The notes under the pieces: generated by a model
The model's database searches: none
What the model was told of the DNA's origin: nothing
The model's input: only the letters and a program-made list of their open reading frames with translations
Program-made: the position numbers and the translations under genes
In this document: positions 7,266 to 42,295 of the stretch, piece after piece
Numbering within the stretch: the first letter of the stretch is position 1
Layout of the letters: every line of letters begins with the position of its first letter
Assembly (NCBI GenBank): GCA_021789155.1
Contig: JAJYJW010000001.1
Location: 1,473 to 65,472, forward strand
Direction: 5' to 3'
DNA from: Candidatus Micrarchaeota archaeon
GTDB taxonomy: Archaea > Micrarchaeota > Micrarchaeia > Micrarchaeales > CABMGC01
Length of the DNA: 64,000 nucleotides

Positions 7266-8168
7266 TTAAGGCGAAGAATAGCCCGATTCCCAGTTGCTCG
7301 TGAAGGTTATTCCAGATGCTGCGCCATTGTTGTTGTTTCCTGAGTAATCCTTAGCATCGCCGTTCAAAGGCCACCAGCCAACGAGATTACTTAATTTCAC
7401 CGGTGAACCTCCTACTCCTTCGTTGAATAATGCCGCTATCTCACTAGAGGAAAGAGATGTATTGTACAACTGCACATTAGCCATTTTACCCTTGAATGTT
7501 CCAGACGTGGTCCATCCTACGCCCCCTATTTTGAAAGCTGCAGATTCAAGCAAACCCTGTCCGCTAAGTATTGTACCACTTTGAAATACTTGATTGTTGA
7601 GATAAATTGCAGCATAGCCTGTTGAACCGTCGTATGTTGCAGTTATCATTTCCCATTGGTACTGTGGCAGGTAATCATATCCTGCTGGCCAAAGGAGTGC
7701 TGCCCAATTCGGACCTACGTAAAGTGGCGCACAGTTATTTCCACCTGCACCCCCTGCAATAAGATTGAATCCGTTGCTTGGATCGGTCCAATCGCCGAAT
7801 ACACCGTTGCATAGATCTCCGTTTGTATAGTATACCCATGCGGAAACGGTGAATTTGCCCGTTGTTCCTAAAGAATTAAGCGTAGACGTCTTTGTTACAC
7901 TTATAAAATTGTTTATTTGCCCGTTGAAAACCGCGACGTATTGGGGCAGTTCGCCGTTGCATATTCCCTGAGTATTGATGAATGACGTTGTTCCAGGGCC
8001 GTTTGGCCTGAAGACGTGGCATGCTCCGGGGGGCGCCTTTGGAGTAAAGGTAGAAGCGTTGAAGATTCCGAGCTGGAATAGTGCTCCTAGGACTACTGCG
8101 ATGATCAGGATCGCCCATCCGTATGTCATCAAGTACTCCATCGCAGATTGTAATTTTGATTGGTTCAT
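7266..8168 (-). CDS. type IV pilin-like (class III signal peptide) LamG/ConA-like domain protein, paralog 1
   Basis: MNQSKLQSAMEYLMTYGWAILIIAVVLGALFQLGIF is a short leader followed by a hydrophobic pilin helix. LamG_3-like hallmarks: FTVSAW, TYDGSTGYAAIYLNN, MANVQLYNTSLSSSEIAALF. Confidence 0.75.
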   Translation of the reverse strand: MNQSKLQSAMEYLMTYGWAILIIAVVLGALFQLGIFNASTFTPKAPPGACHVFRPNGPGTTSFINTQGICNGELPQYVAVFNGQINNFISVTKTSTLNSLGTTGKFTVSAWVYYTNGDLCNGVFGDWTDPSNGFNLIAGGAGGNNCAPLYVGPNWAALLWPAGYDYLPQYQWEMITATYDGSTGYAAIYLNNQVFQSGTILSGQGLLESAAFKIGGVGWTTSGTFKGKMANVQLYNTSLSSSEIAALFNEGVGGSPVKLSNLVGWWPLNGDAKDYSGNNNNGAASGITFTSNWESGYSSP

Positions 8169-8178
8169 AATACAGCCT

Positions 8179-9090
8179 TCATGGAGCGGAATAGCCCGAT
8201 TCCCAGTTGCTCGTGAAGGTCACCGAACCTGAGATCTGACCATTATTGTTATTTCCTGAATAATCCTTTGTGTCGCCATTCAATGGCCACCAACCCATTA
8301 GCTTGTTTAACTTAACTGGGGCGCCGCCTATGCCCTCCTGATAAAGCGCACTTACTTCATTTGATGTGAGAGACGCATTGTATGCTTGTACGTTTGCTAT
8401 CATGCCAAAGAATTGATTTCCCGCAAGTCCGTCAGCTATTGGGCCTATGCCTATCTGAAACGTTCCTTCTGTTGCAGGCAATATGCTTTGGGTATGTGAA
8501 TAAATCAACGCCCCATCCAGATACAAATTATACGCAGCACCATCGTAAGTTACCCCTACGAAGTGCCATGAACCGTAGCTATATGCACTTCCTTCAGAAG
8601 GCCATCCAGGCAAACCATATCCATATATTGCGATATGCTTAGTTGATCCGGTGCCGTCTGCCAGAGATCCTGATGCTATCTCCATAAGGCCTGCATCTCC
8701 TCCGGAACTTGCCATTATCCTCTGACAGCAGTTGCCCGCGCCAAGAATGCTAGGATTGAACCATGCAAAATAGGAAAAAGTACCTGTATTAGATATGGTG
8801 TATGTTGGTACGTTAACATATTGGATTACACTCTTTTCTCCTTGAAGATCAAATCCGCCAACATATTGAGGTAGCTCTCCGTTGCATATTCCCTGAAGGT
8901 TTACGAAAGAAGTTGTCATAGGGCCGTTTGGACGAAATACATGACACGCATCTGGTGGTGCCTTGGGTGTGAAGGTTGATGCGTTGAAAATGCCGAGTTG
9001 AAACAAAGCGCCAAGTACGACTGCGATAATCAAAATGGCCCACCCATAAGTCATGAGATATTCCATTGCACTCTGAAGTTTATAAGCCAT
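8179..9090 (-). CDS. type IV pilin-like LamG-domain protein, paralog 2
   Basis: MAYKLQSAMEYLMTYGW... start at ATG 9090 (track start 9126 would overlap the upstream gene). SWHFVGVTYDGAAYNLYLDG, IANVQAYNASLTSNEVSALY. 10 nt upstream of paralog 1. Confidence 0.75.
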   Translation of the reverse strand: MAYKLQSAMEYLMTYGWAILIIAVVLGALFQLGIFNASTFTPKAPPDACHVFRPNGPMTTSFVNLQGICNGELPQYVGGFDLQGEKSVIQYVNVPTYTISNTGTFSYFAWFNPSILGAGNCCQRIMASSGGDAGLMEIASGSLADGTGSTKHIAIYGYGLPGWPSEGSAYSYGSWHFVGVTYDGAAYNLYLDGALIYSHTQSILPATEGTFQIGIGPIADGLAGNQFFGMIANVQAYNASLTSNEVSALYQEGIGGAPVKLNKLMGWWPLNGDTKDYSGNNNNGQISGSVTFTSNWESGYSAP

Positions 9091-9098
9091 AAAAATCA

Positions 9099-10034
9099 CT
9101 ACGGCGCTGAATAACCGGATTCCCAACTACTTGTGAAACTTACTGCAGATGGAACACCATTATTGTTGTTTCCTGAATAATCCTTTGTGTCTCCATTCAG
9201 AGGCCACCAGCCAACGAGATTGTTGAGTTTTAACGGGGCGCCGCCTATGCCCTCCTGATACAACGCCGCAACCTCGTTTGAGGATAACGAAGTGTTGTAA
9301 ACCTGGACGTTTGCCATTTCGCCAGGAAACATATCTCCTGTATTTCCTCCGATTTTCATAGGATTAGCATTGCCTGTAGCTAGATTCCCAGGTACCCCTG
9401 TAAGTGTTCCCTTTGAAACTCCATTTATGTATAGGGTTACAGTTCCTGCAGTGCCATCATACACACCGACGTAATTCACCCAAGTATTTGCGGGATTTGC
9501 AACCTGGGGATTTTCATAATAGCGAGTGTTAGCAGGGCTAGGACCTACTACTTCAAATGCGACTGCATTGTTATGATAACTGTATGGTTCCATGAGAAGA
9601 TCATACTGGCTGTTCGAACAGCATGCAGGAAACCCGAATAATCCCCTATACACGTCATTGAATGAATAGGATAACATTATCCAGATACTCACGCTTACCG
9701 CGTTGTGATTGGAGAACAATAGTGCGGTACTTCCAGGAGAAATGTACGAGTTTGTTCCATCGAACTTTGCAACGTACTGTGGCAATTCACCGTTGCAAAT
9801 TCCCTGAAGATTAATGAATGAGGTCGTTGCTGGGCCGTTTGGCCTGAATACGTGACATGCACCAGGAGGAGCCTTTGGGGTGAAGGTTGATGCGTTGAAA
9901 ATACCTAGTTGGAAGAGTGCACCTAGGACTACTGCGATGATTAGAATTGCCCAGCCATAGGTCATGAGATATTCCATCGCTGATTGTAATGTTGCTGCGT
10001 TCTTTTCCTGCATTGTATCTGCTAGGTTATCCAT
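9099..10034 (-). CDS. type IV pilin-like LamG-domain protein, paralog 3
   Basis: ..TLQSAMEYLMTYGWAILII.. with start at 10034 or ATG 10013. WVNYVGVYDGTAGTVTLYINGV, MANVQVYNTSLSSNEVAALY. 8 nt upstream of paralog 2. Confidence 0.75.
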   Translation of the reverse strand: MDNLADTMQEKNAATLQSAMEYLMTYGWAILIIAVVLGALFQLGIFNASTFTPKAPPGACHVFRPNGPATTSFINLQGICNGELPQYVAKFDGTNSYISPGSTALLFSNHNAVSVSIWIMLSYSFNDVYRGLFGFPACCSNSQYDLLMEPYSYHNNAVAFEVVGPSPANTRYYENPQVANPANTWVNYVGVYDGTAGTVTLYINGVSKGTLTGVPGNLATGNANPMKIGGNTGDMFPGEMANVQVYNTSLSSNEVAALYQEGIGGAPLKLNNLVGWWPLNGDTKDYSGNNNNGVPSAVSFTSSWESGYSAP

Positions 10035-10178: not shown

Positions 10179-10243
10179 GCAAAGTTAGTTTACACTTTAA
10201 TCCTATTAAAGCTATCTGTAATGTGCTTGTTTAACTCGTCAGT

Positions 10244-10501
10244 GCAGCGGCCGGCACCGCACGATAATTTCCAAATAGGTTGGCCATGCGTCAGCTCGAC
10301 CCCGTATCCGCGAAGCATAGCTCTGCATGTTTAGGGTTGCTCCTTCCGGCCTCGCCCGGTTCGCATGCATGACTACCGCCGTGGGCGGAATCTCATAACA
10401 TCTGCATGGGCCCATTTGGAAGCTTAGGGCACTATGCCAGCATAAGGCTCGCCTATAGGGGATTTGCGATGAGGGAAACCCCTAGCTTCCCACCGTGCTG
10501 C
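10244..10501 (-). ncRNA. SRP RNA (7S RNA)
   Basis: Minus strand carries the helix-8 signature GGCCGGAAGGAGCAACCC. 5' GCAGC pairs with 3' GCTGC. GC-rich, ORF-free gap between the tRNA and the TRAM gene. Ends are approximate. Confidence 0.7.
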
Positions 10502-10566
10502 ATATTCTATTTGCATAGATGGTTTAATAGGATGTAGCATTGACGCTGAGGTCAATTTATAATTAT

Positions 10567-20250: not shown

Positions 20251-20297
20251 GTGCTAACTAGTTTATAACTTTGCTGTGAATCTTCTCTGTGGTAAGC

Positions 20298-21620
20298 ATG
20301 GCAAGCAAGAAGAGAATAGTCATAATTGGGGCTGCTGGACGCGATTTTCATAATTTCAACATGCTTTTCAGAGATAATCCAGATTACGAAGTGGTGGCAT
20401 TTACTGCTGCCCAGATACCGTTCATAGAAAAAAGGACGTTTCCCAAGGAGCTTGCAGGCAAGTTGTACAAAGCAGACATTCCCATTTACAGTGAGGAACG
20501 CCTTCGGAGCATAATAAACAAGGAAAAAATCGACGCGTGCATCATGTCTTACAGCGACCTTAAGGAAAGCGACGTTATGCACAAAGCAAGTCTGGTCAAC
20601 GCAGCTGGTGCAGATTTCGAATTAGTAGCGCCGGAGCACACCATGCTGAAATCGACAAAACCGGTGATAGCAGTATGCGCAGTTAGAACTGGTTGCGGAA
20701 AGAGTCAGGTTTCAAGATACATTGCTATGCTCCTCAAGAAAAAAGGCAAAACCCCTATTGTTATACGTCATCCGATGCCTTATGGGGATCTCGTAAAACA
20801 GAATGTGCAGCGCTTCGCCACCCTGAAAGATCTAGATAAACACAAGACAACGATAGAGGAAAGAGAGGATTACGAACCGCATATCCGTGCAGGGACTGTG
20901 GTATACGCGGGAGTCGATTATGGAAAGATCCTCAAAGAAGCTGAGAAGGAAGCAGACGTAATAATATGGGATGGTGGGAATAATGATGCACCTTTCATCA
21001 AACCAGACCTTTTCATAACAGTAGCTGACCCGTTAAGAACTGGAGACGAACTTAACTACTATCCTGGAGAAACGGTTGCGCGTATGGCAGATATGATAAT
21101 AGTAAACAAGGCGAATTCTGCTAGCCAAAAGGAGATAGACACCTTGCTTTACAATCTGAGGGAAATAAATGCTGACGCAAACATAGTACTCGCGAATTCT
21201 GCGATTAGCGTTGACAGCCCATCCCTGATAAAAGGAAAGAGCGTCGTGGTTGTAGAAGACGGCCCTACAGTAACCCATGGAAACATGAAATTCGGAGCTG
21301 CAACTGTGGCAGTAAAGAAATACGGAGCGAAAAGCGTAGTAGAGCCAGTCAAACTCGCTGTTGGCATAATAAAAGACGTCTACAAGAAATACGCTCATCT
21401 TAGCAAGATAGTACCTGCAGTTGGCTATTCTCCAAAAGAGGTTAACGACCTCAGAAATACGCTGAATAGGATAGACTGCGATTCAATCGTGTCTGCAACC
21501 CCGACAGATTTGACCCGCATAATGGAGCTGAATAAACCAGTAGTACGCGTATATTACGAATTAGAAGAACGCGACAATAAACTAACGAATGCGATAAACG
21601 CGTTCGTGAAGAAAAATTGA
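20298..21620 (+). CDS. COG2403-type P-loop protein (predicted GTPase / cyclic 2,3-diphosphoglycerate synthetase-like)
   Basis: KRIVIIGAAGRDFHNFN N-terminus and central AVRTGCGKSQV P-loop, recalled from this family; ~440 aa. Confidence 0.5.
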   Translation: MASKKRIVIIGAAGRDFHNFNMLFRDNPDYEVVAFTAAQIPFIEKRTFPKELAGKLYKADIPIYSEERLRSIINKEKIDACIMSYSDLKESDVMHKASLVNAAGADFELVAPEHTMLKSTKPVIAVCAVRTGCGKSQVSRYIAMLLKKKGKTPIVIRHPMPYGDLVKQNVQRFATLKDLDKHKTTIEEREDYEPHIRAGTVVYAGVDYGKILKEAEKEADVIIWDGGNNDAPFIKPDLFITVADPLRTGDELNYYPGETVARMADMIIVNKANSASQKEIDTLLYNLREINADANIVLANSAISVDSPSLIKGKSVVVVEDGPTVTHGNMKFGAATVAVKKYGAKSVVEPVKLAVGIIKDVYKKYAHLSKIVPAVGYSPKEVNDLRNTLNRIDCDSIVSATPTDLTRIMELNKPVVRVYYELEERDNKLTNAINAFVKKN

Positions 21621-21690: not shown

Positions 21691-21852
21691 ATGGATGCAA
21701 GAGTAAAACATAATCTGGGAATACTGGCTGGAATTGCGATACTGCTGCTTGATGCTTATTGGACTTATATTGCATGGAGCAATCCAGTACCGCAAATGCT
21801 CGGAATACTGATATTCGTAGCTGCTATAGTATGGTTGTGGGCAGACATGTAA
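21691..21852 (+). CDS. small two-TM membrane protein (53 aa), not in ORF track
   Basis: ATG..TAA ORF MDARVKHNLGILAGIAILLLDAYWTYIAWSNPVPQMLGILIFVAAIVWLWADM, hand-translated. Two hydrophobic helices. Sits in an otherwise empty 324-nt gap. Confidence 0.35.
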   Translation: MDARVKHNLGILAGIAILLLDAYWTYIAWSNPVPQMLGILIFVAAIVWLWADM

Positions 21853-21914: not shown

Positions 21915-21922
21915 TTTATATA
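21915..21922 (+). promoter_or_regulatory. TATA-box candidate for the pilus operon (leaderless-type spacing)
   Basis: TTTATATA centred ~27 nt upstream of ATG 21945 in a strongly AT-rich 90-nt gap. Confidence 0.4.
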
Positions 21923-21944: not shown

Positions 21945-23447
21945 ATGCTAAAGCAGATATTCGAAAAGCTTACTTTAAATAAACGCGCTTTGCCTAGCAG
22001 AGCGAAACTTGGAATTGGGATAGAACAACTACATGGAGAACAGATAGAGGAAATAACAGGAAACATCCCGAAAACCATAGTAAAACGCTTCGGCAGGATG
22101 TTTTACGCTGTGAGAGGCGACTATGTCTCCGCAAATAATACGGAAGAAACTATTCTGGAGGAAGTAAAATTCTCAGCGATAGAACATTTCTCTGAAAGGA
22201 CACATATAGGAATTGAAGAATTGAAAGACGTGAGAGATTACGTCTTGACGCTGCTTTTACAGCGCTTTGCTGCGGATAGGGCTTCGAAACTTTCGTGGCT
22301 AATAGCATATGATCTAGTTGGCTTTGGCCCTTTAGGTATACTGCTCGATAATGCGAATGATCTTGAAGAGATAGAAGTCAATTCGCCAACTTCCAGAATT
22401 TTCGTGGTTCATGCAAAATTCGGAAGATGCGAGACCAATTTAAGATTCGTTGATGAAGCGAATTTCACCCGAAACATCAATGCATTCATTGAAGAGTGCG
22501 GAAAGGAACTCAACGATAATAATCCAATAGTCGATGCGCAAGTTAATATGTCGAGAGTGCATGCGCAGTTGAAACCCTATGCTGCAAGGGGCGCATGCGC
22601 AACCATAAGGATAGGCAATAAGACCGAGATTAATGCGTGTACGATAGCGGACCAAGGCACTGCGAGCTACAGAATGCTTGCGTACTTGTGGATGGCAGTA
22701 GAGTGCAAAATGAACGTCGTGATAGCCGGAGCTCCTGCAAGCGGCAAGACTACTCTGCTAGGGGTTATGCTTGGGTTCGTGCCAAAGTACAGGAAAATAA
22801 TAACCGTTGAAGAAGAAGTTGGAGAATTCAACATGTATGGCAACGCGCAAAGCTTCATACCCCTATATGGCAAGAAGGGGCTCAACCGCATAGGGGTTAA
22901 AGAACAGGTGATAAATGCGTTGAGGATGAGGCCTGATGTGTTGGTTCTGGGAGAACTACGTGCGGAAGAGGCGCGAGAGGCTTTTGCTGCATGCAACGTC
23001 GGCATAGAATTCCTCACCACTATACACTCAAACGAAGACGCGAATAGCATATTGCGTAGGTTAAGCTTGCGCCCGATGAACGTTGATCCTGCGGCTCTGC
23101 AGGCCATTGATCTCGCAATTTACATGAAAATTAACGACAGAGGAAATAGAGTTTTGCATGGGTTGCACGAACTTCGTTGGCTAAGTAAGGCCGAAATACT
23201 CGATCCAGAGATTTTGGTGGGAGACAATTCCCTATCAGTAACTAACATGATCTACAACAGCACGTGGAATCGAGAGTGCGAGGCGAAAAGCAAGGTGATA
23301 GAAAGATTTTCGCAGCTCAATAAAATTGACCTAAACAAGAGCATTGAGGAACTTGACAAAAGGGAAGCATATCTGAAATCGTGCGCGCCTTACGCCAGAG
23401 ACACTCTCGCAGTTATAGACAAGCTGGCCACTTATGGGATTTCATGA
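21945..23447 (+). CDS. type IV filament assembly ATPase (FlaI/ArlI/PilB/TadA-like, T2SSE family)
   Basis: Walker A VIAGAPASGKTTLLG, Walker B/Asp box PDVLVLGELRAEEA, His box FLTTIHSN; 500 aa. Confidence 0.85.
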   Translation: MLKQIFEKLTLNKRALPSRAKLGIGIEQLHGEQIEEITGNIPKTIVKRFGRMFYAVRGDYVSANNTEETILEEVKFSAIEHFSERTHIGIEELKDVRDYVLTLLLQRFAADRASKLSWLIAYDLVGFGPLGILLDNANDLEEIEVNSPTSRIFVVHAKFGRCETNLRFVDEANFTRNINAFIEECGKELNDNNPIVDAQVNMSRVHAQLKPYAARGACATIRIGNKTEINACTIADQGTASYRMLAYLWMAVECKMNVVIAGAPASGKTTLLGVMLGFVPKYRKIITVEEEVGEFNMYGNAQSFIPLYGKKGLNRIGVKEQVINALRMRPDVLVLGELRAEEAREAFAACNVGIEFLTTIHSNEDANSILRRLSLRPMNVDPAALQAIDLAIYMKINDRGNRVLHGLHELRWLSKAEILDPEILVGDNSLSVTNMIYNSTWNRECEAKSKVIERFSQLNKIDLNKSIEELDKREAYLKSCAPYARDTLAVIDKLATYGIS

Positions 23448-24091
23448 AAATTGCTTATTTCATATCTGCAACGATGCTAGGGATTGTTTGCGGCGTCATA
23501 TTGGCATACAGCAACTCGGCAAACGATATTTACCACGCGTTGCCATTTCTTGTAGAAGGATTGCTCATTGCGGCAGTGATAGAACGATGCAGGGAATTAC
23601 TTTCCGATTCAAAACAGAGGGATAGTCGCAAACGCGATATGGAACGGGCAATTGAGTGCATGGAAGAAATGAGAACTAAAGGCTCCTCAATTGCAGGTGC
23701 CCTCGATAGTATTTTGGGGCTTGTATACGATATTTCTGTAATTGGAGACCTTCGAAAGGAGCTGACAAGACGCAAACTGGGGAAAACTATTTCCGCACCT
23801 TACTTAAATAAACAAAATTTGGAAAGTGTCGAAAATAGGATAAAGGAGAGCGCGAGCAACGCCGCTATTTCTACAGCAAAGACATTGCACACCCTGCAGA
23901 ATGTCTCCACCTTGAACATGTTCATAGCGAGCATCATACCTTCGTTCATCGTATTCGGCTTTGTATCTGAAACCGTTTTGGTTGGAGGAACCTTTAATTA
24001 TGGCGCATTTGCTGAGGCGCTCGTGATATTCGTGCCTTTGGCGTATTTGTTTCCCAAATTCTATCTTTCGAGGAAATTACTTGAGATTTGA
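23444..24091 (+). CDS. putative filament platform membrane protein, half 1 (T2SSF/TadB-like)
   Basis: ATGA overlap with the ATPase stop. Topology is TM-TM, helical cytoplasmic segment (..KGSSIAGALDSIL..), TM-TM. Position directly after the ATPase. Confidence 0.5.
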   Translation: MKIAYFISATMLGIVCGVILAYSNSANDIYHALPFLVEGLLIAAVIERCRELLSDSKQRDSRKRDMERAIECMEEMRTKGSSIAGALDSILGLVYDISVIGDLRKELTRRKLGKTISAPYLNKQNLESVENRIKESASNAAISTAKTLHTLQNVSTLNMFIASIIPSFIVFGFVSETVLVGGTFNYGAFAEALVIFVPLAYLFPKFYLSRKLLEI

Positions 24092-24809
24092 AACCTATCT
24101 GAGCATAATTGCAACTGCGCTTTCGGCATTGGCCTATTTCTTGTTAGGCCCAGACTGGGCGCTTGCTGCAATAGTTTTATACTACCTCTTTATTGCCATC
24201 TTGGCCCGCAGGAAAACTAATGGAGGGGAGATATTGATTAGCGGAGAGGCAGCAAGGATTTATAGGGAAACGCATTCCGCAAGATACACTCTTAAAGGGA
24301 TATCGCATTTGTCCCAGATATTCCCACGAATATCGTATAGAATACGAATTGGGTCACGGGCCAAAGAGAAACAATCTAATTCGCCCATACGAAAAGTTGC
24401 AGATATCTTGGAGTGGGGCGCTGAAAAAGGCATAGATATTCAATATGCGCTTGACAAGGTGCTTGCAGACGCTTTGAAAGACAGGAAGAAAGCCGAACTT
24501 GTGTCTGATAGAGTACTAGGAATGGAAAGACTTTCGGTTATTGGAATGAGCGTATTCTTTCCCCTGTTCGCTGGCACATGTGCGAGCATACTTTATGGAT
24601 CTACTTCCGGAACGATGGTGCAGACCATGATAAGCCCTCTGTTCAACCTGGTCATATGCATGTCAGTATGGGAAATTGCAACTATAAAACGAATCATGGA
24701 AGATCCTGAGGGCAATATTCTAGAAGGCGCAGCCGAAAGTTCACCTGCTGCAATGCTGGCGCTGTTTGTCACGCTTATGGCGCAGGCTTATTCTGCTTAT
24801 GTTATGTGA
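24081..24809 (+). CDS. putative filament platform membrane protein, half 2 (T2SSF/TadC-like)
   Basis: Same TM-TM / cytoplasmic (..EKGIDIQYALDKVL..) / TM layout. TTG start overlaps the upstream stop by 11 nt. Confidence 0.45.
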   Translation: MRFETYLSIIATALSALAYFLLGPDWALAAIVLYYLFIAILARRKTNGGEILISGEAARIYRETHSARYTLKGISHLSQIFPRISYRIRIGSRAKEKQSNSPIRKVADILEWGAEKGIDIQYALDKVLADALKDRKKAELVSDRVLGMERLSVIGMSVFFPLFAGTCASILYGSTSGTMVQTMISPLFNLVICMSVWEIATIKRIMEDPEGNILEGAAESSPAAMLALFVTLMAQAYSAYVM

Positions 24810-25054
24810 GTGATTTGATGTGTGATATATGCAATCTAAAAGCCGCATTTTTGGTAGCAAAGAGCTGCAGACTACAGGGTTCAATGGAATACATAATGAT
24901 GCTCGCGGCTGCGAGCTTGGTTATCGTATTGGCAGTGACGATGGTCGTCAAGATGAAGCAGGCAGTGGTTCATAACATTACTATAGGGAATAACAGTATG
25001 AGCATAGCTCAGGCGATATCGAGCCAGCTGCAAAGCATATCAAACATGTCGTGA
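24806..25054 (+). CDS. small pilin-like protein (candidate major pilin; mature ~57 aa)
   Basis: ..KSCRLQG|SMEYIMMLAAASLVIVLAV.. class III signal-like. Alternative TTG start at 24851 would give a short basic leader. Sequons NIT, NNS, NMS. Confidence 0.55.
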   Translation: MSDLMCDICNLKAAFLVAKSCRLQGSMEYIMMLAAASLVIVLAVTMVVKMKQAVVHNITIGNNSMSIAQAISSQLQSISNMS

Positions 25055-25058
25055 ACAC

Positions 25059-25433
25059 ATGAAAATACAAACGTCGTTCGAATTCATGATATACCTAATG
25101 CTGTCTGCTGTGGCTTTAATGATAAGCATGCGGTCAATTAACAGCGCAATAGCGCAGTTTTACGGGGTTTTGTCTAATTCTGAGATGAATAATCTCGTCT
25201 CCAAAATAAATTATGCTGCGTTATCATATACTAGCATGAGTTTTGATGCGTACCTGCCTGATGGAGTATGCAATGCCAAAATCAACAACAGTCAACTGTC
25301 AACAGAATACGGGAATTTCACATTAGGACACGATGTAAAGCTGCAAAATGCGACTTTATGCCCTGACAAAACTGAAGCACGTTTCGACATAATCGATAGC
25401 AATGGTTTTTTTGTAGTTTCAAGAGTGAGGTAA
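25059..25433 (+). CDS. pilin-like protein (124 aa)
   Basis: MKIQ|TSFEFMIYLMLSAVALMISM N-terminus (K-I-Q-T-S-x-E-F followed by a hydrophobic helix). Confidence 0.55.
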   Translation: MKIQTSFEFMIYLMLSAVALMISMRSINSAIAQFYGVLSNSEMNNLVSKINYAALSYTSMSFDAYLPDGVCNAKINNSQLSTEYGNFTLGHDVKLQNATLCPDKTEARFDIIDSNGFFVVSRVR

Positions 25434-25592
25434 ATGCTTGCGCAGATCAGCTTTGAAGTCATAATCGGATTGGTTGCGATGTCGTTATTCCTGCTTTTCG
25501 TAATAATGTTAATACACGCATTGTCTCACGAATACGTTGAAGCGCGAAACATTTCTTATGTTATCCAAATCTATGCTGAGTTTTATGCGTAA
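25434..25592 (+). CDS. very small pilin-like protein (52 aa), not in ORF track
   Basis: ATG immediately after the TAA of the upstream gene. MLAQISFEVIIGLVAMSLFLLFVIMLIHAL... (Q-I-S-F-E followed by a hydrophobic helix), hand-translated. Confidence 0.4.
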   Translation: MLAQISFEVIIGLVAMSLFLLFVIMLIHALSHEYVEARNISYVIQIYAEFYA

Positions 25593-25938
25593 CTCCAAAT
25601 GTAATATATCCTTAGAGTTGATGGTTCTTCTGATGGTTGGGGTAGCATGCAGTACAAGCATAATGATTGGCTTCCGTCAGTTATCCGGAGTTTACGCCAA
25701 AAGCATGAAATTCGTATCCAACTACGAAATGGCTTATAACATATCATCTGCTCTGATATCTGTGCTATCATCAGAAGGTAGTTGCATCCGCACTAATTCC
25801 ACTCAGCATTCCATTTTTCAATATTATGTGGTTTGTGACGTAACCAGAACATGCGGTCCTGGGGAAATATGTCGCATATTTACATATGGAGATGGTGAAG
25901 ACGCTTTATTGGTGGTGAAATATGAGAATACAGACTAG
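25585..25938 (+). CDS. pilin-like protein (start ambiguous: 25537 TTG, 25573 ATG or 25585 ATG)
   Basis: MRNSKCNISLELMVLLMVGVACSTSIMIGF is a basic leader, S-L-E-L and a hydrophobic helix. ATG 25585 overlaps the upstream stop (ATGCGTAA). Confidence 0.5.
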   Translation: MRNSKCNISLELMVLLMVGVACSTSIMIGFRQLSGVYAKSMKFVSNYEMAYNISSALISVLSSEGSCIRTNSTQHSIFQYYVVCDVTRTCGPGEICRIFTYGDGEDALLVVKYENTD

Positions 25939-27199
25939 CATAGAGTTCATATCTATGCTCGCTTTGGTAACAGTAGTGGCATTGATTGGCATATCGCAGT
26001 TCAAAACTAGCATGACATTCGCGAAAAATTCTATTGATGTGGCATACTCAATGAATGTATCTGCATTGAAAAGCAACATGAGTTATGGAAGCGTTCGCGT
26101 GTTCGCGGCTATCCAGAATGCAACCCTGCTAAACTACAGCTATATTGCCCAGATTGGAGTTACTGGATGTGACAATGGCAGCGTGCGTGCAGAATATTTG
26201 GGCAACGGGATACGGTTGAAGGAAAGAAACGCAAGTTTCGAATTCAAATACGCGGCAACACACCCCATTCAATTTACGCCCATAACCCGAGGCTCTGATT
26301 GGATTAACGTATCCTATTTTTGGAAATGCGAAAACCAAAGTGGTAGTGGTTTACTATCCCTTAACACTTTTGCGTATGCCGAAAACAAAAACGGCTATTC
26401 GCAGTTTCTACAGGCAGGATACTCCAATGGCGATTATTTCACCATATATTCCAGAAAGGAGAGCGAGGTGTTCTCCCTTCATTCTCTGGGCGATGCAACG
26501 CGATTCTACATTTTCAGCCATTGTACGTATGCAAGCATGTTCGGTCCTACGCCGATAGACAGGCAATGCGGAACCTTAAACGCATGGATGTATTCCGTTT
26601 TTTCCTCTAATTGTCAAACTACCAGCAATTTCTATACGGAAACGTATTGCATATTGCCTAAGGATTCCGGCTATAACTACGGAATCGTAGACCAGTTTTC
26701 TGGGATATCGAACTACTCTTTCGCACTTCACCTGCATTATTCCAATAAGGATTACACCGCAAATGTTACCGGACGGGGAAATTCCGCGAAGTTCACTGGA
26801 AATCTACCTGGAAAGCCAAGTATGAACTATAGCGCATCAAGCGTCTCAGTAGGAAACGTTGCATATTCACGAAATACCAGTTCGGGGAACGAAAGAATAG
26901 CTAACTACTCCTTGCTACTCAACTACATGCAGCATGGAAGTTCGGTTCTGGATATGCTCTCTTATTATAACAACTCTTTTTTGATTCCACAGGAACAGCA
27001 GGCGTTGCAAGAACAACTTCTTGCGTATTCAAATGCGATGTCGGCATTTTTGAATTCCTCTGGGGAAAATGGAAAATGTACAGTACAGAATGCGAGCTAC
27101 TCATGTGCAAGCCCTCAGATAGATTATATCATAGTAGACAACGCTAGCGGAAATGCCGAGAATCTTTCCTATGCTGGCTCTTTGATGAGATTAGGGTGA
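25922..27199 (+). CDS. large pilin-like, sequon-dense secreted protein (425 aa)
   Basis: MRIQ|TSIEFISMLALVTVVALIGI N-terminus. About 18 N-x-S/T sequons by manual count. Overlaps the upstream gene by 17 nt. Confidence 0.6.
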   Translation: MRIQTSIEFISMLALVTVVALIGISQFKTSMTFAKNSIDVAYSMNVSALKSNMSYGSVRVFAAIQNATLLNYSYIAQIGVTGCDNGSVRAEYLGNGIRLKERNASFEFKYAATHPIQFTPITRGSDWINVSYFWKCENQSGSGLLSLNTFAYAENKNGYSQFLQAGYSNGDYFTIYSRKESEVFSLHSLGDATRFYIFSHCTYASMFGPTPIDRQCGTLNAWMYSVFSSNCQTTSNFYTETYCILPKDSGYNYGIVDQFSGISNYSFALHLHYSNKDYTANVTGRGNSAKFTGNLPGKPSMNYSASSVSVGNVAYSRNTSSGNERIANYSLLLNYMQHGSSVLDMLSYYNNSFLIPQEQQALQEQLLAYSNAMSAFLNSSGENGKCTVQNASYSCASPQIDYIIVDNASGNAENLSYAGSLMRLG

Positions 27200-27200
27200 C

Positions 27201-27569
27201 GTGTTGCAAGTGATATACGCCATAGAAACTGCGTTGGTCATTGCCATAACATTAATCTGCATATTGACAATGCTCTATTACTCTGTTATGATAAGGAACA
27301 ATTCTGCGTACGCTGTTAGAAGATTGCACGTTTCGATGGAGCTTGAGGACATTTCTAATTTGTTTGTTAAGAACATGTCCGCAAAAGAATGCTCTTACAG
27401 AATATATTTGGGAAATGGAACGTGCGCGTCGTCATACTTGGGTTATGTTAATCGGAGTTACGGCAGTGAAATAAGCATAAGCGACACCGCGGCAAGTGGG
27501 GATTATTTGTGTTTTGCTGATGTGTACAACGGCATTTATTTTGTGCCCTGTGTTTCTGTGGTTAGATGA
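27201..27569 (+). CDS. pilin-like/TadE-like protein (122 aa)
   Basis: GTG start 1 nt after the upstream stop. N-terminus MLQVIYAIETALVIAITLICIL resembles the TadE-type motif (..E-x-A-L-V..). Confidence 0.45.
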   Translation: MLQVIYAIETALVIAITLICILTMLYYSVMIRNNSAYAVRRLHVSMELEDISNLFVKNMSAKECSYRIYLGNGTCASSYLGYVNRSYGSEISISDTAASGDYLCFADVYNGIYFVPCVSVVR

Positions 27570-27787
27570 GCTTGTTTTGGGGGATTGTGATTTCGATAAC
27601 GATGCTTGCTGCGTTCGCTTTGTTTTACTCCGCAAATTTGTATGTGCAATCAATACATATTGAATATTCGCTTTACAGATCCGCGGGAGACAGCAGACTG
27701 CAGTCGTTAACTACCTATTTCTGGCAGTGCAACTATGAGGCCATGGTCCTTGGGATAAACAACATTGAGAATGGCACATGGTGCTGA
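27566..27787 (+). CDS. small N-terminally anchored protein, last gene of the pilus operon
   Basis: ATGA overlap with the upstream gene. MSLFWGIVISITMLAAFALFY hydrophobic N-terminus. Confidence 0.4.
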   Translation: MSLFWGIVISITMLAAFALFYSANLYVQSIHIEYSLYRSAGDSRLQSLTTYFWQCNYEAMVLGINNIENGTWC

Positions 27788-27839: not shown

Positions 27840-27924
27840 GGCCTTGGTGGTGTAACGGCGGCACGGAAGGCTGTGGACCTTCAAGACCGGGTCCGACATA
27901 AAAACGGAAATCCCGGCCTAGGCC
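27840..27924 (+). tRNA. tRNA-His (anticodon GUG) with encoded G-1 and ~13-nt insertion in the T-loop
   Basis: G(-1)+GCCTTGG / CCTAGGC+C (one U-U mismatch); D arm GTGT-AACGGCG-GCAC; anticodon arm GAAGG-CTGTGGA-CCTTC; T stem CCGGG/CCCGG enclosing 20 nt (TCCGACATAAAAACGGAAAT) instead of 7. Confidence 0.65.
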
Positions 27925-27933
27925 TATTCTAAT

Positions 27934-29472
27934 TCAGAACAAGTACAGACTTATTAGCCTTATAATCTTCTTGAGGAACTTAACGAACGAGTTCGAATTC
28001 CACTTGACATCTCCGACGAACTGCTTGTATCTTTGCTTTTCCTCAGGAGTTAGTTTTCCTTCCTTGACCCTTTCGGTTCTCTTTCCATCTACTACTTCCA
28101 CTTCGGTTTTGCTGATTATGTCTTTCTTGATCATCCCATACCATTCGTCAAGGGAATTACCATGTTTCCTAATCTCCACTAAGAAGTCCTTTGTCTTTAG
28201 CTTCCTCTTCCTTCCAGTCCTATCCTCTTCTGCAGCAACACGCAAAGCCGCATCATCGCATATTTCCTGTATGTCTGCATGCGAGAATCCTATTGTTGCG
28301 CGTGCCAATCTACCGAAGGCTACGCTACCTACCGGCATATTCCTTGTTTGGTATATGAAAGCACCTTTCCTTTCCTTCAAGTTGGGCGGCCTCAGATATA
28401 TTGACTTGCCAAACCTGCCGCTTCTCTTCAAGGCAGGGTCCATATCCCAAGGTTGGTTCGTCGCGCCAACTACGAATATGCCCTCTGGGTTTTTCTCTAT
28501 GCCGTCTAGTTCCTGAAGGAACTGGTTTACTGCCATGCGCATGCCGCTGCCACCACCTCCGCCGCTTTCGCTGTCCCTCTTCGTACCTAAAGCGTCTACT
28601 TCATCGAAGAATAACAGGCAGGGAGCATTTTTTCTAGCATTTTCGAATATTGCATGCATGTTTTTCTCGGTATTACCTGCATACATGTCCACTATCTGGT
28701 TTATGTTGGCGAGTATTACGCCCGAGCCAGTTTCTCCGCTGACTGCTCTTATGAAATTGGTTTTTCCACAACCTGGTGGCCCATAGAATAGAACTCCTAC
28801 GCCTATCTTCTTGCCATAAGATTTGAGAAGTTCTGGTTTTTTTATCGCAAGTGTAACATTCTGGTATATGAATTCCTTCTCCTTGTCCATTCCTACTATG
28901 TCCCTAAACGTAGATGTGAAGTGCCTAACGTCCACCTGCTTTATCTGGCCCTCTTCTATTACTGTTCCGGTTTGCTGGGTTTGCGGTGACGCCTTTGCTA
29001 CCCCGACGTTTATGCCAGGAGCACCTTGCTGGGCCATTGCAGCCTCGGATTTGGTACTTATGCCAAGTTTCTCGTTGACCTGTGCGAGTTTGGTTTTCGC
29101 CGGAGCATATGTAGGGTTTTTCTCTAGGGCCTTATTGAACCATTCCTTTGCTCCCTGATAATCTTTCTGAGACTCGTAGATTATACCCATTATGTAAGGG
29201 GCATCGTGGCTATCTGGTTCTTTCTTCATTACCTGCTCTATGTCGCGCTCTGCCAAATCATATTTGTTGGTTATTGCATAGGATAATGCCCTGTTGAAAT
29301 ATGCGCTCGAATAATCTGGATCTAGATTTATTGCCTGTGAATAGAGTTCGATCGCTTCGTCGAACTTGTTGTCTTCGAATAAGTTGCCAGCTTTTGTGTA
29401 AAGTTCCTTTGCGAGTGGGTTTGCCGTTCCTCCCTTTCCCGCCGGTTTGTTCTCTTCAGGCATTATACTCAT
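27934..29472 (-). CDS. TPR-repeat AAA+ ATPase (single classical AAA module)
   Basis: N-terminal TPR repeats (FDEAIELYSQAINLDPDYSSAYFNRALSY..). Walker A FYGPPGCGKT, Walker B LLFFDEVDAL, second region of homology GATNQPWDMDPALKRSGRF. Confidence 0.8.
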   Translation of the reverse strand: MSIMPEENKPAGKGGTANPLAKELYTKAGNLFEDNKFDEAIELYSQAINLDPDYSSAYFNRALSYAITNKYDLAERDIEQVMKKEPDSHDAPYIMGIIYESQKDYQGAKEWFNKALEKNPTYAPAKTKLAQVNEKLGISTKSEAAMAQQGAPGINVGVAKASPQTQQTGTVIEEGQIKQVDVRHFTSTFRDIVGMDKEKEFIYQNVTLAIKKPELLKSYGKKIGVGVLFYGPPGCGKTNFIRAVSGETGSGVILANINQIVDMYAGNTEKNMHAIFENARKNAPCLLFFDEVDALGTKRDSESGGGGGSGMRMAVNQFLQELDGIEKNPEGIFVVGATNQPWDMDPALKRSGRFGKSIYLRPPNLKERKGAFIYQTRNMPVGSVAFGRLARATIGFSHADIQEICDDAALRVAAEEDRTGRKRKLKTKDFLVEIRKHGNSLDEWYGMIKKDIISKTEVEVVDGKRTERVKEGKLTPEEKQRYKQFVGDVKWNSNSFVKFLKKIIRLISLYLF

Positions 29473-29954
29473 CCTAACTTTGCTTGGAAGGACTCGTTGC
29501 TTTCATTTTCATTTGTTCCTGTTGTTCCATCCCTTTCTTTCTTGTCAAGCAGTTTATTAAGCTCTGAATCCACCAAGGTAATATACTTATTTTCTCTCGG
29601 CACATTTATAAACTTGCAACTTGCGAGCTTAGATTCGGCATATTTTGCTTTGGTATGCAGGCTTCTCAGCGCATCGCTCTTCACTTTGAACTTCCCGTTG
29701 ATTTGGTTGACGATCAGATTGCTATCAGAACGCAAAGTAATTCTTGACTCTTTTCCATACATGGATGAGGCATATTCCAACGCGGCTATTACTGCTTTGT
29801 ATTCGGCGACGTTGTTCGTGGTTATGCCGTTGTAGAATATTTTCTTTGCTAGGAGTTTTTCCTTCGAATCGAGTATGAAGAATCCTGACGAGCTCGGCCC
29901 TGGATTGCCCCTCGCCGCCCCATCAGTATATATTAAAAGATCCACGAAACTCAC
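29469..29954 (-). CDS. rnhA: ribonuclease HI
   Basis: IYTDGAARGNPGPSSSGF, NNVAEYKAVIAALE, SDSNLIVNQING (D-E-D catalytic context). ATGA overlap with the downstream AAA gene. Confidence 0.8.
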   Translation of the reverse strand: MSFVDLLIYTDGAARGNPGPSSSGFFILDSKEKLLAKKIFYNGITTNNVAEYKAVIAALEYASSMYGKESRITLRSDSNLIVNQINGKFKVKSDALRSLHTKAKYAESKLASCKFINVPRENKYITLVDSELNKLLDKKERDGTTGTNENESNESFQAKLG

Positions 29955-39794: not shown

Positions 39795-40679
39795 TCATGG
39801 CGCAGAATACGTGCTTGCCCATTCGCTTGTAAAGGTTACCGCAGACGAAACTCCATTGTTGCCATTTCCAGAGTAATCTTTCGTGTCGCCGTTGAGGGGC
39901 CACCAGCCAACGAGGTTGTTGAGCTGCACAGGCGCGCCGCCTATTCCCTCATTGTACAACGCCACTATCTCATTCGCAGATAATGATGAATTGTATATCT
40001 GAAAGTTCGAATAAAGCCCGCTCCAAGAGAAATCGCCATACGCACCTATGGTCAGCGCCGTGCCGATTTGGTATCCAAGAGGGAGATATGTCCCATAGTT
40101 GTATTGGCAAATCTGCTTCCCGTTATCATATGTTGTTACCGCAAAACCATTGTACGTAACTGCGACGTTGTGCCAACTGCCATCGCTAACCGAATGCGAA
40201 TTGTCGCATGCGTTACGGAGGGTTTTGCTTGTCCACGAATAGAAATATGGGTTCCCTCCAGAATCCGTACCGAACCATATTCCATTGTTGCTGTAGCTTT
40301 GCTTCTGCATGAATTCTTTCCAATTTTTTGTCGTTGATTCTAACCACACCGAAATTGTAATCTGCGTAGGACCAAGCATTGATTTGTCAGGCACATTTGC
40401 ATAGGAAGCTGCGCCTTGCTGCCTCCATACATATTGTGGCAATTCGCCATTGCATATGCCCTGCAAGTTTATGAATGAAGTCGTGCCTGGGCCGTTTGGC
40501 CTGAATACGTGGCATGCGCCAGGAGGTGCCTTTGGAGTAAACGTCGAGGCGTTGAAGATTCCAAGCTGGAACAAGGCACCCAATACGACCGCAATGATGA
40601 GTATCGCCCACCCGTAGGTCATGAGGTATTCCATCGCGCTTTGGAGTCTAGAGTTAATGCCAGTCTTCCTTTCAAACAT
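39795..40679 (-). CDS. type IV pilin-like LamG-domain protein, paralog 4 (dispersed copy)
   Basis: MFERKTGINSRLQSAMEYLMTYGWAILII...; SWHNVAVTYNGFAVTTYDNG; NFQIYNSSLSANEIVALY; tail LVGWWPLNGDTKDYSGNGNNG. ATG shares one base with the upstream ALDH stop (TGATG). Confidence 0.75.
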   Translation of the reverse strand: MFERKTGINSRLQSAMEYLMTYGWAILIIAVVLGALFQLGIFNASTFTPKAPPGACHVFRPNGPGTTSFINLQGICNGELPQYVWRQQGAASYANVPDKSMLGPTQITISVWLESTTKNWKEFMQKQSYSNNGIWFGTDSGGNPYFYSWTSKTLRNACDNSHSVSDGSWHNVAVTYNGFAVTTYDNGKQICQYNYGTYLPLGYQIGTALTIGAYGDFSWSGLYSNFQIYNSSLSANEIVALYNEGIGGAPVQLNNLVGWWPLNGDTKDYSGNGNNGVSSAVTFTSEWASTYSAP

Positions 40680-42295
40680 CACTTCACATTCGCTATGCTT
40701 TGTTCCCTCATGAATTGCTGCAGGTAGAACCTGCTTCCTGTTCCTTTCCCAGTAAGTCCACTGCCTTTCCATCCCACAAAGGTGTGAAGGCCAACCATTG
40801 CGCCAGTAGTGGCACTCGTTTGCCTGTTTATGTATACTACGCCCGCTTGGATTCTATCCTTGAAGTATTTTATCTCGCTGTTCTTAATGCTGTAAAAACC
40901 CGCAGTCAATCCGTAATCGACATCGTTTGCCTTTTCCAGCGCTTCTTCCATGCTCTTGAACGAGTCTACAACCAGTATCGGCACGAAGAGTTCCTCGTGG
41001 AACAGCTTGTTGTCATGCGGCAACTCGACTATGGTGGGTTCTACGTATAATCCTTTCCCGTCGTTAACCACATTACCCCCATGTATTACTCTGCCGGAAC
41101 GATGCGCCTCTTCCATTGCCCATTTGAATTTCTCAAGTGCTTTTGCACTTATCAGAGGGCCGACATAGTTTCTCTTTTCCAAAGGGTTTCCTATGTTAAA
41201 ACCTCTTACCTTGTCTACTAACTTGCTCACGAACTGCTCCTTTACCGAATTATGCACGTACAGTCTCGAACATGCACTGCACTTCTGTCCTGCAAATCCG
41301 AATGCTGCGCTTGCAACACCATCAACAGCATTGTCTAAGTCTGCGTATTTTGAAACGATCGCGGGATTCTTGCCCCCCATTTCGACGACGAAAACTTTTT
41401 GGTGGTTTTGGACCAGAGATTTTGCCACCATGCCCATGCCCGTTGTGCGCGATCCGGTAAATGCTATCCCTGAAACCAAGGGGCTCGTGACCAATTCGTC
41501 CCCCACTTCGGAACCAGGTCCGGTCACGATGTTGAAAACCCCCTCCGGAATTCCTGCTTCCTTGAATATTTCGTATATTTTTACCCCGGTAAGCATAGTC
41601 ATGTTATCTGTTGATGACGGTTTGAATACCACAGTATTGCCGGTTATCAGAGCGCCGGTGCTCATTCCCACAGATATAGATATTGGAAAATTGAACGGCG
41701 CTATAACTCCGAAAACTCCATAAGGCATCATTCTTATCTCGACTTTTTCGGTGTTTCCCGGAGCCCCTTGAAAGCCTGCATTTACTTTGCTTGTGCTGCC
41801 CAAGGATGCTGCCTTCCTAAGATAGCCTTTGTTCCTCTCCAGGTCATCTGCATAATAGCGCAAGAAATCTATAGCTTCGTCAACTTCCCCTATCGACTCG
41901 TACCTCGTCTTTCCGTTCTCTATGCTTAATATCGCAGCTATCGTGAATTTCTCTCTAGCGAAAATGTCTGCAGCATTGCGCATTATCTTGGCTTTCTCCT
42001 TGTAACCTGTAGAACTCCATGAGAGAAATGCCGCCTTTGCCGCGTTTATCGCAGACGTTGCGTGCTCTCTTGTGCCCTTTTGGAACTTGCCGATTAGCAG
42101 GTTTTTGTCTATCGGTGAATATTCTTCTATGAGATCTACTGCATGGACCTCTTTCCCTGCGATATACATGGGGAATGTTGCGCCGAGAATTCCGGATTTT
42201 ACGTTTGCCACTGCATTGTCGAATAGTTTATCGAATTCTTCTTCCCTGTTCTGTTCAACGAATTTTTTAAAAGTAGACTCGTTAGCGAATATCAT
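40679..42295 (-). CDS. aldehyde dehydrogenase (1-pyrroline-5-carboxylate dehydrogenase-like)
   Basis: FTGSRTTG, VVEMGGKNPAIV, FGFAGQKCSACSR (catalytic Glu/Cys contexts); 538 aa. Confidence 0.85.
   Translation of the reverse strand: MIFANESTFKKFVEQNREEEFDKLFDNAVANVKSGILGATFPMYIAGKEVHAVDLIEEYSPIDKNLLIGKFQKGTREHATSAINAAKAAFLSWSSTGYKEKAKIMRNAADIFAREKFTIAAILSIENGKTRYESIGEVDEAIDFLRYYADDLERNKGYLRKAASLGSTSKVNAGFQGAPGNTEKVEIRMMPYGVFGVIAPFNFPISISVGMSTGALITGNTVVFKPSSTDNMTMLTGVKIYEIFKEAGIPEGVFNIVTGPGSEVGDELVTSPLVSGIAFTGSRTTGMGMVAKSLVQNHQKVFVVEMGGKNPAIVSKYADLDNAVDGVASAAFGFAGQKCSACSRLYVHNSVKEQFVSKLVDKVRGFNIGNPLEKRNYVGPLISAKALEKFKWAMEEAHRSGRVIHGGNVVNDGKGLYVEPTIVELPHDNKLFHEELFVPILVVDSFKSMEEALEKANDVDYGLTAGFYSIKNSEIKYFKDRIQAGVVYINRQTSATTGAMVGLHTFVGWKGSGLTGKGTGSRFYLQQFMREQSIANVK

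Follow-up and report, generated by a model that had tools for sequence, protein, structure and literature searches.

Type IV pili have been annotated before in the phylum Micrarchaeota. Golyshina et al. (2017; PMC5498576) described two type IV pili loci in the micrarchaeon 'Ca. Mancarchaeum acidiphilum' Mia14. One of them, MIA14_0252-0260, encodes according to their Supplementary Table 2 an archaellum/pili-type ATPase, a TadC protein and one more component, then several class III pilins in a row, a 'component with class III signal peptide' and a final pilin. The other, MIA14_0170-0177, has a CpaF-family ATPase and was assigned to clade 1 by the authors. Mia14 has a single FlaK-like peptidase, encoded far from the pilus loci, to which LamG proteins are linked. 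In the wider archaeal classification of Makarova, Koonin and Albers (2016), the ATPase AfGspE (AF0659) belongs to clade 2 (arCOG01817); clade 1 loci usually contain two tadC-like genes, as do many clade 2 loci; a large class III minor pilin (250-550 amino acids (aa), arCOG02911) is shared by clade 2 systems, in addition to a major pilin of the PilA type; and the peptidase gene often lies elsewhere. Here we analysed a ten-gene operon in a stretch of 64,000 nucleotides (the window) of contig JAJYJW010000001.1 from a Candidatus Micrarchaeota archaeon (assembly GCA_021789155.1). With a probability of about 0.6, this operon would encode a complete archaeal type IV pilus-like assembly machine together with its filament subunits, in a form that is specific to Micrarchaeota and conserved in this phylum.

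The operon extends from position 21945 to position 27787 of the forward strand (5,843 nt) and comprises, in the list of open reading frames (ORFs) of the window, ten ORFs in the same direction, numbered g1 to g10 below. An independent gene caller found the identical ten genes in a public contig of 146.7 kb (ena:ERZ27233565:k141_1285733). From g1 to g10, the successive junctions measure -4 (ATGA), -11, -4 (GTGA), +4, 0, -8, -17, +1 and -4 nt (ATGA). Because all of them fall between -17 and +4 nt, the ten genes can be taken as a tightly packed operon with predicted translational coupling. The original prediction, which had been made from the DNA letters, had announced a compact 10-gene operon of 5.8 kb with one ATPase and two polytopic membrane proteins, and this was confirmed. 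It had also reported ATGA overlaps at almost every junction; the junctions are indeed all tight, but literal ATGA overlaps occur only twice and GTGA once. A TATA-like box (TTTATATA, 21915..21922, forward strand), read from the sequence, is centred about 26 nt 5' of the ATG of g1, a position that suggests a leaderless operon transcript. The locus is not new in kind, as the same layout was annotated in Mia14 in 2017. The likeness to MIA14_0252-0260, which belongs to the same phylum and also has its peptidase elsewhere, is one of layout and was established through the annotation table; compared with that locus, the window has a tenth small gene and lacks a divergent upstream gene. Horizontal acquisition of the operon was considered and rejected: its GC content (42-45%) is the same as that of the remainder of the window.

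Conservation of the operon was assessed by scanning genomes. A scan with g1 alone returned nothing, and a scan with an alignment of the family returned 68 Micrarchaeota loci (one genome per species). The order g1-g2-g3-g4-g5-(small gene)-g7-g8-g9 was found in about 45 of these 68 loci, usually followed by a small tenth ORF. It was held although the ATPases are only 33-44% identical, and across the sampled Micrarchaeota the sequences have diverged to 20-45% identity while gene order was conserved. This combination of conserved order and diverged sequence strongly indicates that none of the genes is spurious, not even the small ones, and that they function together. No homologs of the pilin families were detected outside Micrarchaeota in the searches that were run, and the operon appears to be specific to this phylum and conserved across its sampled members. 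About 10 loci (L004, L005/L041, L014, L015, L020, L024, L027, L029, L032) contain a short form limited to g1-g5. The ATPases sampled from such loci group together in the tree, and the short form therefore looks derived. In L005, g5 is followed by two unrelated proteins of about 355-385 aa that have no Pfam match.

The first gene, g1 (21945..23447, forward strand as all operon genes), encodes a 500-aa assembly ATPase of the FlaI/GspE2/TadA superfamily (Pfam T2SSE, 2e-24), which keeps all the residues that are invariant in the family and catalytic, including the Walker A lysine K268, E337 and H361. Compared with NCBIfam models, it scored 158 bits with the FlaI equivalog (cut-off 550), 127 bits with the TadA-family model TIGR03819 (cut-off 373), 69 bits with BasE (cut-off 1000) and 42 bits with ComGA. 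Among proteins of the PDB, the best match was afGspE (2OAP; 142 bits, E 2.8e-40), followed by CpaF (97 bits) and FlaI (94 bits), and afGspE scored above both CpaF and FlaI in nearly all members of the ATPase family. We also searched 1.84 billion representatives with g1 and scored the 145 newly returned hits against afGspE, CpaF and FlaI; 113 of them were nearer to afGspE than to CpaF. Identity in the core is 31% with afGspE, and 28% with both CpaF and FlaI. The closest relatives of g1 are about 100 proteins with 35-44% identity (44% for the nearest one), and those that are named come from Candidatus Micrarchaeota (DPANN). Two neighbor-joining trees of the ATPase core, one of them with 100 bootstraps, did not place the family and showed no sister relation to CpaF. 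No Tad affinity was observed in them. The affinity with clade 2 is accordingly modest, and we regard the family as a divergent lineage of archaeal ATPases. It is a possibility that it forms its own deep branch of type IV filament ATPases outside the described archaeal clades, which, if true, would bear on the debate about whether bacterial Tad pili originated in archaea. The unbiased g1 hits also comprised four long proteins (P0125, P0142, P0146 and P0153; 1,150-1,600 aa), with two or three matched stretches each that are apparently CpaF-like ATPase modules.

The next two genes encode putative platform proteins. The product of g2 (23444..24091; 215 aa, 4 transmembrane (TM) segments) was recognised by profile comparison and topology as a single diverged T2SSF-like module, and that of g3 (24081..24809; 242 aa, TTG start) as a second T2SSF-type module, through Pfam matches in members of its family. 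In both, a soluble domain of about 100 aa separates a first pair of TM segments at the N-terminal end from two or three others at the C-terminal end. Comparison of the g2 family with the g3 family by hhalign indicated that they are paralogs (probability 95.4%, E 1.9e-8). Pfam T2SSF was found in 9 of the 39 scanned members of the g3 family (best value 3.1e-6), and precomputed T2SSF matches were present for the g3 proteins of loci L002, L003 and L005. A g2 gene was found in 64 loci, and the g2 profile gave weak matches to PilC/GspF cytoplasmic domains (E 0.04-0.5). The paralogy, the T2SSF matches in the g3 family and the weak PilC/GspF matches together indicate that g2 and g3 are two diverged single-module platform proteins. 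A single-sequence AlphaFold2 (AF2) model of g2 was unusable (predicted local distance difference test (pLDDT) 45.0). Comparison of the g2 and g3 profiles with bacterial TadB and TadC by hhalign had no power, the bacterial profiles containing three sequences and TadB matching TadC itself with a probability of only 2.8%.

The candidate major pilin is encoded by g4 (24806..25054; alternative start ATG 24818). It has a class III signal peptide with a predicted cleavage site after R-L, which would leave a mature protein of 59 aa in the window, rather than the ~57 aa originally proposed, and of 57-62 aa in the orthologs. Pfam Class_IIIsignal (PF04021) was present in all 38 members of the g4 family that were scanned, window copy included, and Flp_Fap (PF04964) in none of these 38. 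The residues Q+1, S+3, E+5 and Y+6 are invariant in 62 of 62 sequences. The family consensus consists of a long conserved leader (..P.EA.A.LALARS.KG), then QGSLEYIMMLAAASIVIV.ALAMVVKLKGAVV, then a short tail, which in the orthologs carries 1-3 N-x-S/T sequons. When the families were aligned with the tool, g4 had the highest mean column identity after the ATPase (47%, compared with 34% for g8 and 31% for g2 and g3). As the best conserved pilin-like component, it is likely to be the major subunit.

Five further genes encode other proteins with pilin-like features (in what follows, the arrow marks the putative cleavage position). The product of g5 (25059..25433; 124 aa, MKI↓QTSFEF) resembles a minor pilin with a conserved Cys pair; in an alignment of 61 orthologs, Q+1, S+3, E+5 and Y+9 were present in all, and a CNS...CPDG signature was conserved. 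The small g6 protein (25434..25592; 52 aa, MLA↓QISFE) has a positional ortholog in 42 loci, with Q+1 in 43 and E+5 in 41 of the 43 sequences, window copy included. For g7 (25585..25938; 117 aa), the ATG at 25585 (MRNSKCNISLEL) was preferred over the TTG at 25537 of the ORF list, in line with the Logan call of 117 aa. Its N-terminus (MRNSKC↓NISLEL) is of a non-canonical K(G/A)xx(I/V)SL(D/E) form, and the ortholog consensus is M..K(G/A)xx(I/V)SLD followed by a TM helix. The large g8 protein (25922..27199; 425 aa, MRI↓QTSIEF) contains 8 Cys and 18 sequons, and Q+1, E+5 and F+6 were found in 49 of 49 aligned orthologs. Its alignment (A4) has nine invariant columns, four of which are Cys, and two further Cys are nearly invariant. 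Comparison of the g8 profile with Pfam and PDB disclosed no domain beyond the signal peptide, and word-indexed homolog searches, with the single sequence or with a profile of 44 sequences, each returned only the self-hit P0121. The single-sequence AF2 model was unusable for this protein also (pLDDT 34.9). We consider g8 a candidate tip adhesin or large minor pilin. The g9 protein (27201..27569; 122 aa, alternative start 27210) has a degenerate N-terminus in the window (MLQVIYAIETAL), the ortholog consensus being MKA↓QFATxE with four conserved Cys.

The last gene, g10 (27566..27787), encodes a small membrane protein of 73 aa with an N-terminal TM helix, which is not of the class III type. About 32 of the 43 ORFs at this position begin with M[SAG][FYA][YF]G[LIM], followed by a TM helix; the window copy has this conserved motif (MSFYGL), and no class III motif was seen in it. 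Topology prediction indicated a single N-terminal hydrophobic segment in each of the small proteins g4-g10. Of the seven pilin-type N-termini claimed in the original prediction, five (g4-g8) are clear and that of g9 is perceptible only through its orthologs, but g10 is not pilin-like. As in g4, a QxSxE signature is present in g5, g6 and g8, whose families begin with M-[KR]-x↓Q-x-S-x-E (Q and E being invariant or nearly invariant), and Q...E is present in the g9 orthologs. The recurrence of this Q/S/E pattern appears far beyond chance, Q+1, S+3 and E+5 being fixed in 62/62 sequences for g4, 61/61 for g5 and 49/49 for g8. No homology was detected by hhalign between the globular parts of g4-g10, which are therefore seven separate families and not recent duplicates. 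Cysteines are conserved in g5, g7, g8 and g9, and together with the sequon counts they point to extracellular, glycosylated pilin-like proteins.

No A24 peptidase was found in the 64-kb window, all polytopic ORFs of which were scanned, in agreement with the original prediction that the window lacks a prepilin peptidase. These ORFs encode BacA, EamA, a Na/H exchanger, a polysaccharide flippase, SecY and a 742-aa protein without Pfam match. Nor did the 8-10 kb around the operon yield a peptidase in the five related contigs for which genes had been called. Since in Mia14, too, the FlaK-like peptidase is far from the pilus loci, a peptidase encoded in trans would seem to be the rule here and not a peculiarity. 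The residue that precedes the putative cleavage site deserves mention. In the g8 orthologs it is usually I, L or M; in g4, L at -1 is found only in the window copy (1 of 62 orthologs). The presence of L or I at -1 in the window suggests a peptidase with a relaxed or shifted specificity, or three-residue leaders that stay uncleaved.

The window contains other proteins that may depend on the same peptidase. Three tandem LamG (Laminin_G_3) proteins are encoded on the reverse strand at 7266-8168, 8179-9126 and 9099-10034 (Pfam 9e-14 to 9e-20), with the N-terminus L↓QSAMEYLMTYGWAIL. A motif scan disclosed a fourth one with the same pilin-like N-terminus, also on the reverse strand (39795..40772; Laminin_G_3, 5.6e-20). 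The LamG proteins with a cleavage-type motif that had been noticed earlier thus do exist, with a QSAMEY N-terminus, and are four rather than three. Their N-terminal regions of about 75 aa, composed of a pilin-like helix followed by a linker, are near-identical, their C-terminal regions of about 60 aa are conserved, and between the two lies a hypervariable lectin core. It is a pattern that hints at diversifying selection, or at gene conversion, on a constant stalk. In some relatives, fusions of a pilin N-terminus with LamG or InlB-type repeats are encoded 5-8 kb 5' of the operon. The idea that the LamG proteins are additional substrates is plausible: they may well be processed by the peptidase that serves the pilins, and perhaps handled by the pilus machine too.

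We compared the locus with the systems it might belong to. It has the assembly ATPase and the class III pilins of a type IV pilus and, at the family level, the T2SSF platform. An archaellum was rejected as a candidate: no KaiC/ArlH-like or other archaellum accessory protein was found in the operon or among the scanned window ORFs (about 15 soluble ORFs being left out), and the score with the FlaI equivalog is far below its cut-off. Both the absence of archaellum accessory genes and the assignment to an adhesion-type type IV filament rather than an archaellum, as first proposed, are thus supported. Among clade 2 type IV pili, which include AfGspE/AF0659 and Haloferax PilB3/PilB4, AfGspE is the best solved relative of g1, though only 31% identical in the core, and g8 is comparable to arCOG02911 in size and position. 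The Epd pili of Methanococcus maripaludis (clade 1) have in common with the window two TadC-like genes, a short major pilin and several minor pilins, which are essential there, and also N-glycosylated Q+1 pilins of the DUF361/Class_IIIsignal type. EppA of M. maripaludis requires Gln at +1, and Gln is invariant at this position here; it is also allowed for other archaeal pilins. The locus differs from Epd in that no 9-TM EppA-like peptidase was found, either in the window or, for the five related contigs, up to 8-10 kb from the operon, and in that the major pilin gene lies inside the operon.

A closer link with bacteria had been put forward in the original prediction, which credited the locus with Tad/Flp-like traits. 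It could accordingly be an archaeal lineage specifically related to the bacterial Tad/Flp system, Epd- or Tad-like, with a split TadB/TadC platform, a Flp-type pilin and a TadE-type pseudopilin. Similarities are not lacking: the ATPase belongs to the same superfamily; there are two single-module platform proteins with TadB/TadC architecture; the pilin has about 60 aa in its mature form, E5-Y6 and a long conserved leader; Q+1 is invariant, as EppA needs it in the Epd system; and some bacterial CpaF-like proteins score about 150 bits with g1, which is as high as afGspE. Yet Flp_Fap is absent from all 38 scanned g4 proteins, the TadA-family score is about one-third of its cut-off, nearly all family members and 113 of the 145 new representatives are closer to afGspE than to CpaF, and the trees show no CpaF sister relation. 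No window protein matched Flp or TadE at E <= 1, and TadE was not among the 25 families listed for 120 pooled minor pilin-like orthologs. The TadE-like N-terminus that had been attributed to g9 was therefore abandoned: the check with PF07811 gave no support, the orthologs carry the archaeal-type motif M-K-A↓Q, and the window copy is a degenerate version of this family motif. Nor did the ten operon proteins include a match to TadZ/CpaE, the RcpA secretin, TadV/CpaA or TadD/TadG. The split platform, which had been considered a Tad trait, is real in the sense that two single-module genes are present, but it is usual in archaeal clades 1 and 2 and hence not diagnostic. On these comparisons, the remaining likenesses (60-aa pilin, E5-Y6, leader, Q+1) are resemblances, not signs of membership. 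They fit the published view of Tad pili as descendants of archaeal pili, but the locus is not Tad-like in particular, and we consider a specific Tad/Flp relationship very unlikely.

Compact operons combining an ATPase, a platform and pilins also occur in systems that serve surface assembly or DNA uptake and do not build long pili, such as the Sulfolobus bindosome (BasEF/BasABC) and Gram-positive comG. The operon might by analogy form a short pseudopilus that inserts or displays class III-signal surface proteins (LamG and adhesin-like fusions) in the envelope, as Bas does for sugar-binding proteins, or in the manner of a type II secretion pseudopilus. The presence in the genome of four or more large LamG proteins whose N-terminus is of the pilin type, the similar fusions near the operon in relatives, the many minor pilin-like genes beside one tiny pilin and the weak BasE match all agree with this idea, which we regard as unlikely, because g4 is extremely conserved and has the size of a filament-forming pilin, and because the BasE score is not only far below its cut-off but also below the FlaI and TadA scores. 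Furthermore, the pilin-like proteins of Bas are reportedly three in number and small, none of them reaching the 425 aa of g8. A competence-type pseudopilus taking up DNA from the host is even less probable, marginally below the Tad/Flp relationship. The gene order (ATPase, platform, major pilin, minor pilins) mirrors that of comG, g6 shows a weak, non-significant match to ComGE (E 0.068), the organism depends on its host for nucleotides, and Golyshina et al. (PMC5498576) speculated on DNA exchange through the type IV pili of Mia14. Against this, no ComEA/ComEC-like channel or DNA-binding protein is encoded in the operon or was found among the scanned window ORFs, the ComGA model gives only 42 bits, and the proposal is based on architecture. 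For both Bas and comG, profile matches are sub-threshold and a g8-like partner is missing; the locus itself contains no sugar-binding or DNA-uptake genes. Least probable of all is that the window holds a decaying or non-functional remnant. It is true that g9 has lost the K and the Q of its motif, that g6 has no C-terminal CxC, that g10 is short, that the window g4 is the sole case of L at -1 among 62, and that the divergent gene found upstream of every related Micrarchaeota locus spanning that stretch is missing here. However, the ten ORFs are intact, with ortholog-like lengths, and all invariant ATPase residues are kept. The L or I at -1, being common to g4, g5, g8 and the four LamG proteins, looks like a co-adaptation with the peptidase and not like decay.

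Several observations nevertheless weigh against our preferred interpretation, a type IV pilus-like machine. The window copies of g2 and g3 have themselves no direct Pfam T2SSF match, and no peptidase was found in the window. Instead of the canonical G/A, position -1 is occupied by L (g4, LamG proteins) or I (g5, g8), which makes cleavage of three-residue leaders uncertain. The window copies of g6, g9 and g10 are shorter or degenerate compared with their orthologs: g6 is shorter than the usual 65-68 aa or so and has no C-terminal CxC, and g9 has neither the K nor the Q of the ortholog N-terminus. Both single-sequence AF2 models, of g2 and g8, were too poor for a fold search. Expression, cleavage and filament formation are predicted for every member of these families, and the adhesive role is deduced from lifestyle and architecture.

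From the parts list and its conservation, we infer that the type IV pilus-like machine would work as follows. A prepilin peptidase encoded in trans would cleave the short basic leaders before the invariant Gln(+1). Hexameric g1 would dock on a membrane platform made of g2 and g3; the homology of these two proteins is established, and their assembly into a heterodimer is proposed by analogy with TadB/TadC and EpdJ/EpdK. The platform would then pull the N-glycosylated pilin g4, of about 60 aa, from the membrane, and g4 would polymerise into a thin filament through the hydrophobic helix at its N-terminus. Minor pilin-like proteins with cysteines (g5, g6, g7 and g9) might prime or cap this filament, with g8 at its tip as an adhesin. 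Other surface proteins of the class III type in this genome, the four LamG proteins for example, would probably share the peptidase and might share the machine. No retraction ATPase was found in the locus or among the scanned window ORFs. Most likely, such a filament would serve to attach this nano-archaeon, which depends on a host, to the cell of that host or to a surface. In this respect, it is of interest that cells of the cultured micrarchaeon ARM-1 bear thin filaments which 'could represent archaeal pili', and that filaments were observed at the host contact sites of Ca. Micrarchaeum harzensis. A bolder proposal would be that the phylum-wide operon builds the filament of first host contact and that the four LamG proteins are interchangeable tip or surface adhesins, served by the same peptidase and machine, that set the host range. 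We offer this as a speculation that is rather unlikely to hold in full.

Micrarchaeota are obligate partners of other archaea, and the operon is among the few surface machineries conserved across the sampled members. What it adds to the known type IV filaments is not a new type of machine but a well-defined gene set, particular to this lineage, in which seven pilin-like families show no relation to one another. It also provides candidates for the cultured strains ARM-1, Ca. Micrarchaeum harzensis and Mia14, i.e. the g4 orthologs as filament subunit, g8 and the LamG fusions as adhesins, and a peptidase that tolerates L, I or M at -1.

The surroundings of the operon were also compared. In the related loci, a divergent gene of about 108-112 aa lies directly 5' of the ATPase in all 68 loci where an iterated search found it (a few of these being duplicate fetches of one contig). 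It has no Pfam match (e.g. L001, 9530-9856, reverse strand) and may be, from its appearance by eye, a winged-helix regulator. It is absent from the window (1-64000), in which g1 is preceded by a 443-aa gene (20289-21620) and a 53-aa ORF with two TM segments (21691-21852). Downstream of the operon, a TPR-AAA ATPase and an RNase H are encoded on the reverse strand (27934-29954), in synteny with the closest relative (L001, 16978-20027, reverse strand). The TPR-AAA gene of L001 encodes 854 aa and includes an intein with a LAGLIDADG endonuclease; the window copy encodes 512 aa and has no intein.

Two RNA genes were also noted. The reverse strand contains at 10243-10502 a signal recognition particle (SRP) RNA gene, which is best matched by the Rfam model for bacterial large SRP RNA (70 bits) and not by an archaeal model. 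On the forward strand, 53 nt after the g10 stop codon, positions 27840-27927 correspond to a tRNA-His(GUG) gene that had escaped annotation and whose T-loop is interrupted by a short non-canonical intron. G-1 is present, and a TATA-like element (ATATAAATA) is found upstream. This gene was missed by ARAGORN and at the Rfam gathering threshold, and was detected as a tRNA (17.5 bits) in the E-value mode of Rfam. Deletion of 11-17 nt within 27893-27911 led ARAGORN to call a tRNA-His.

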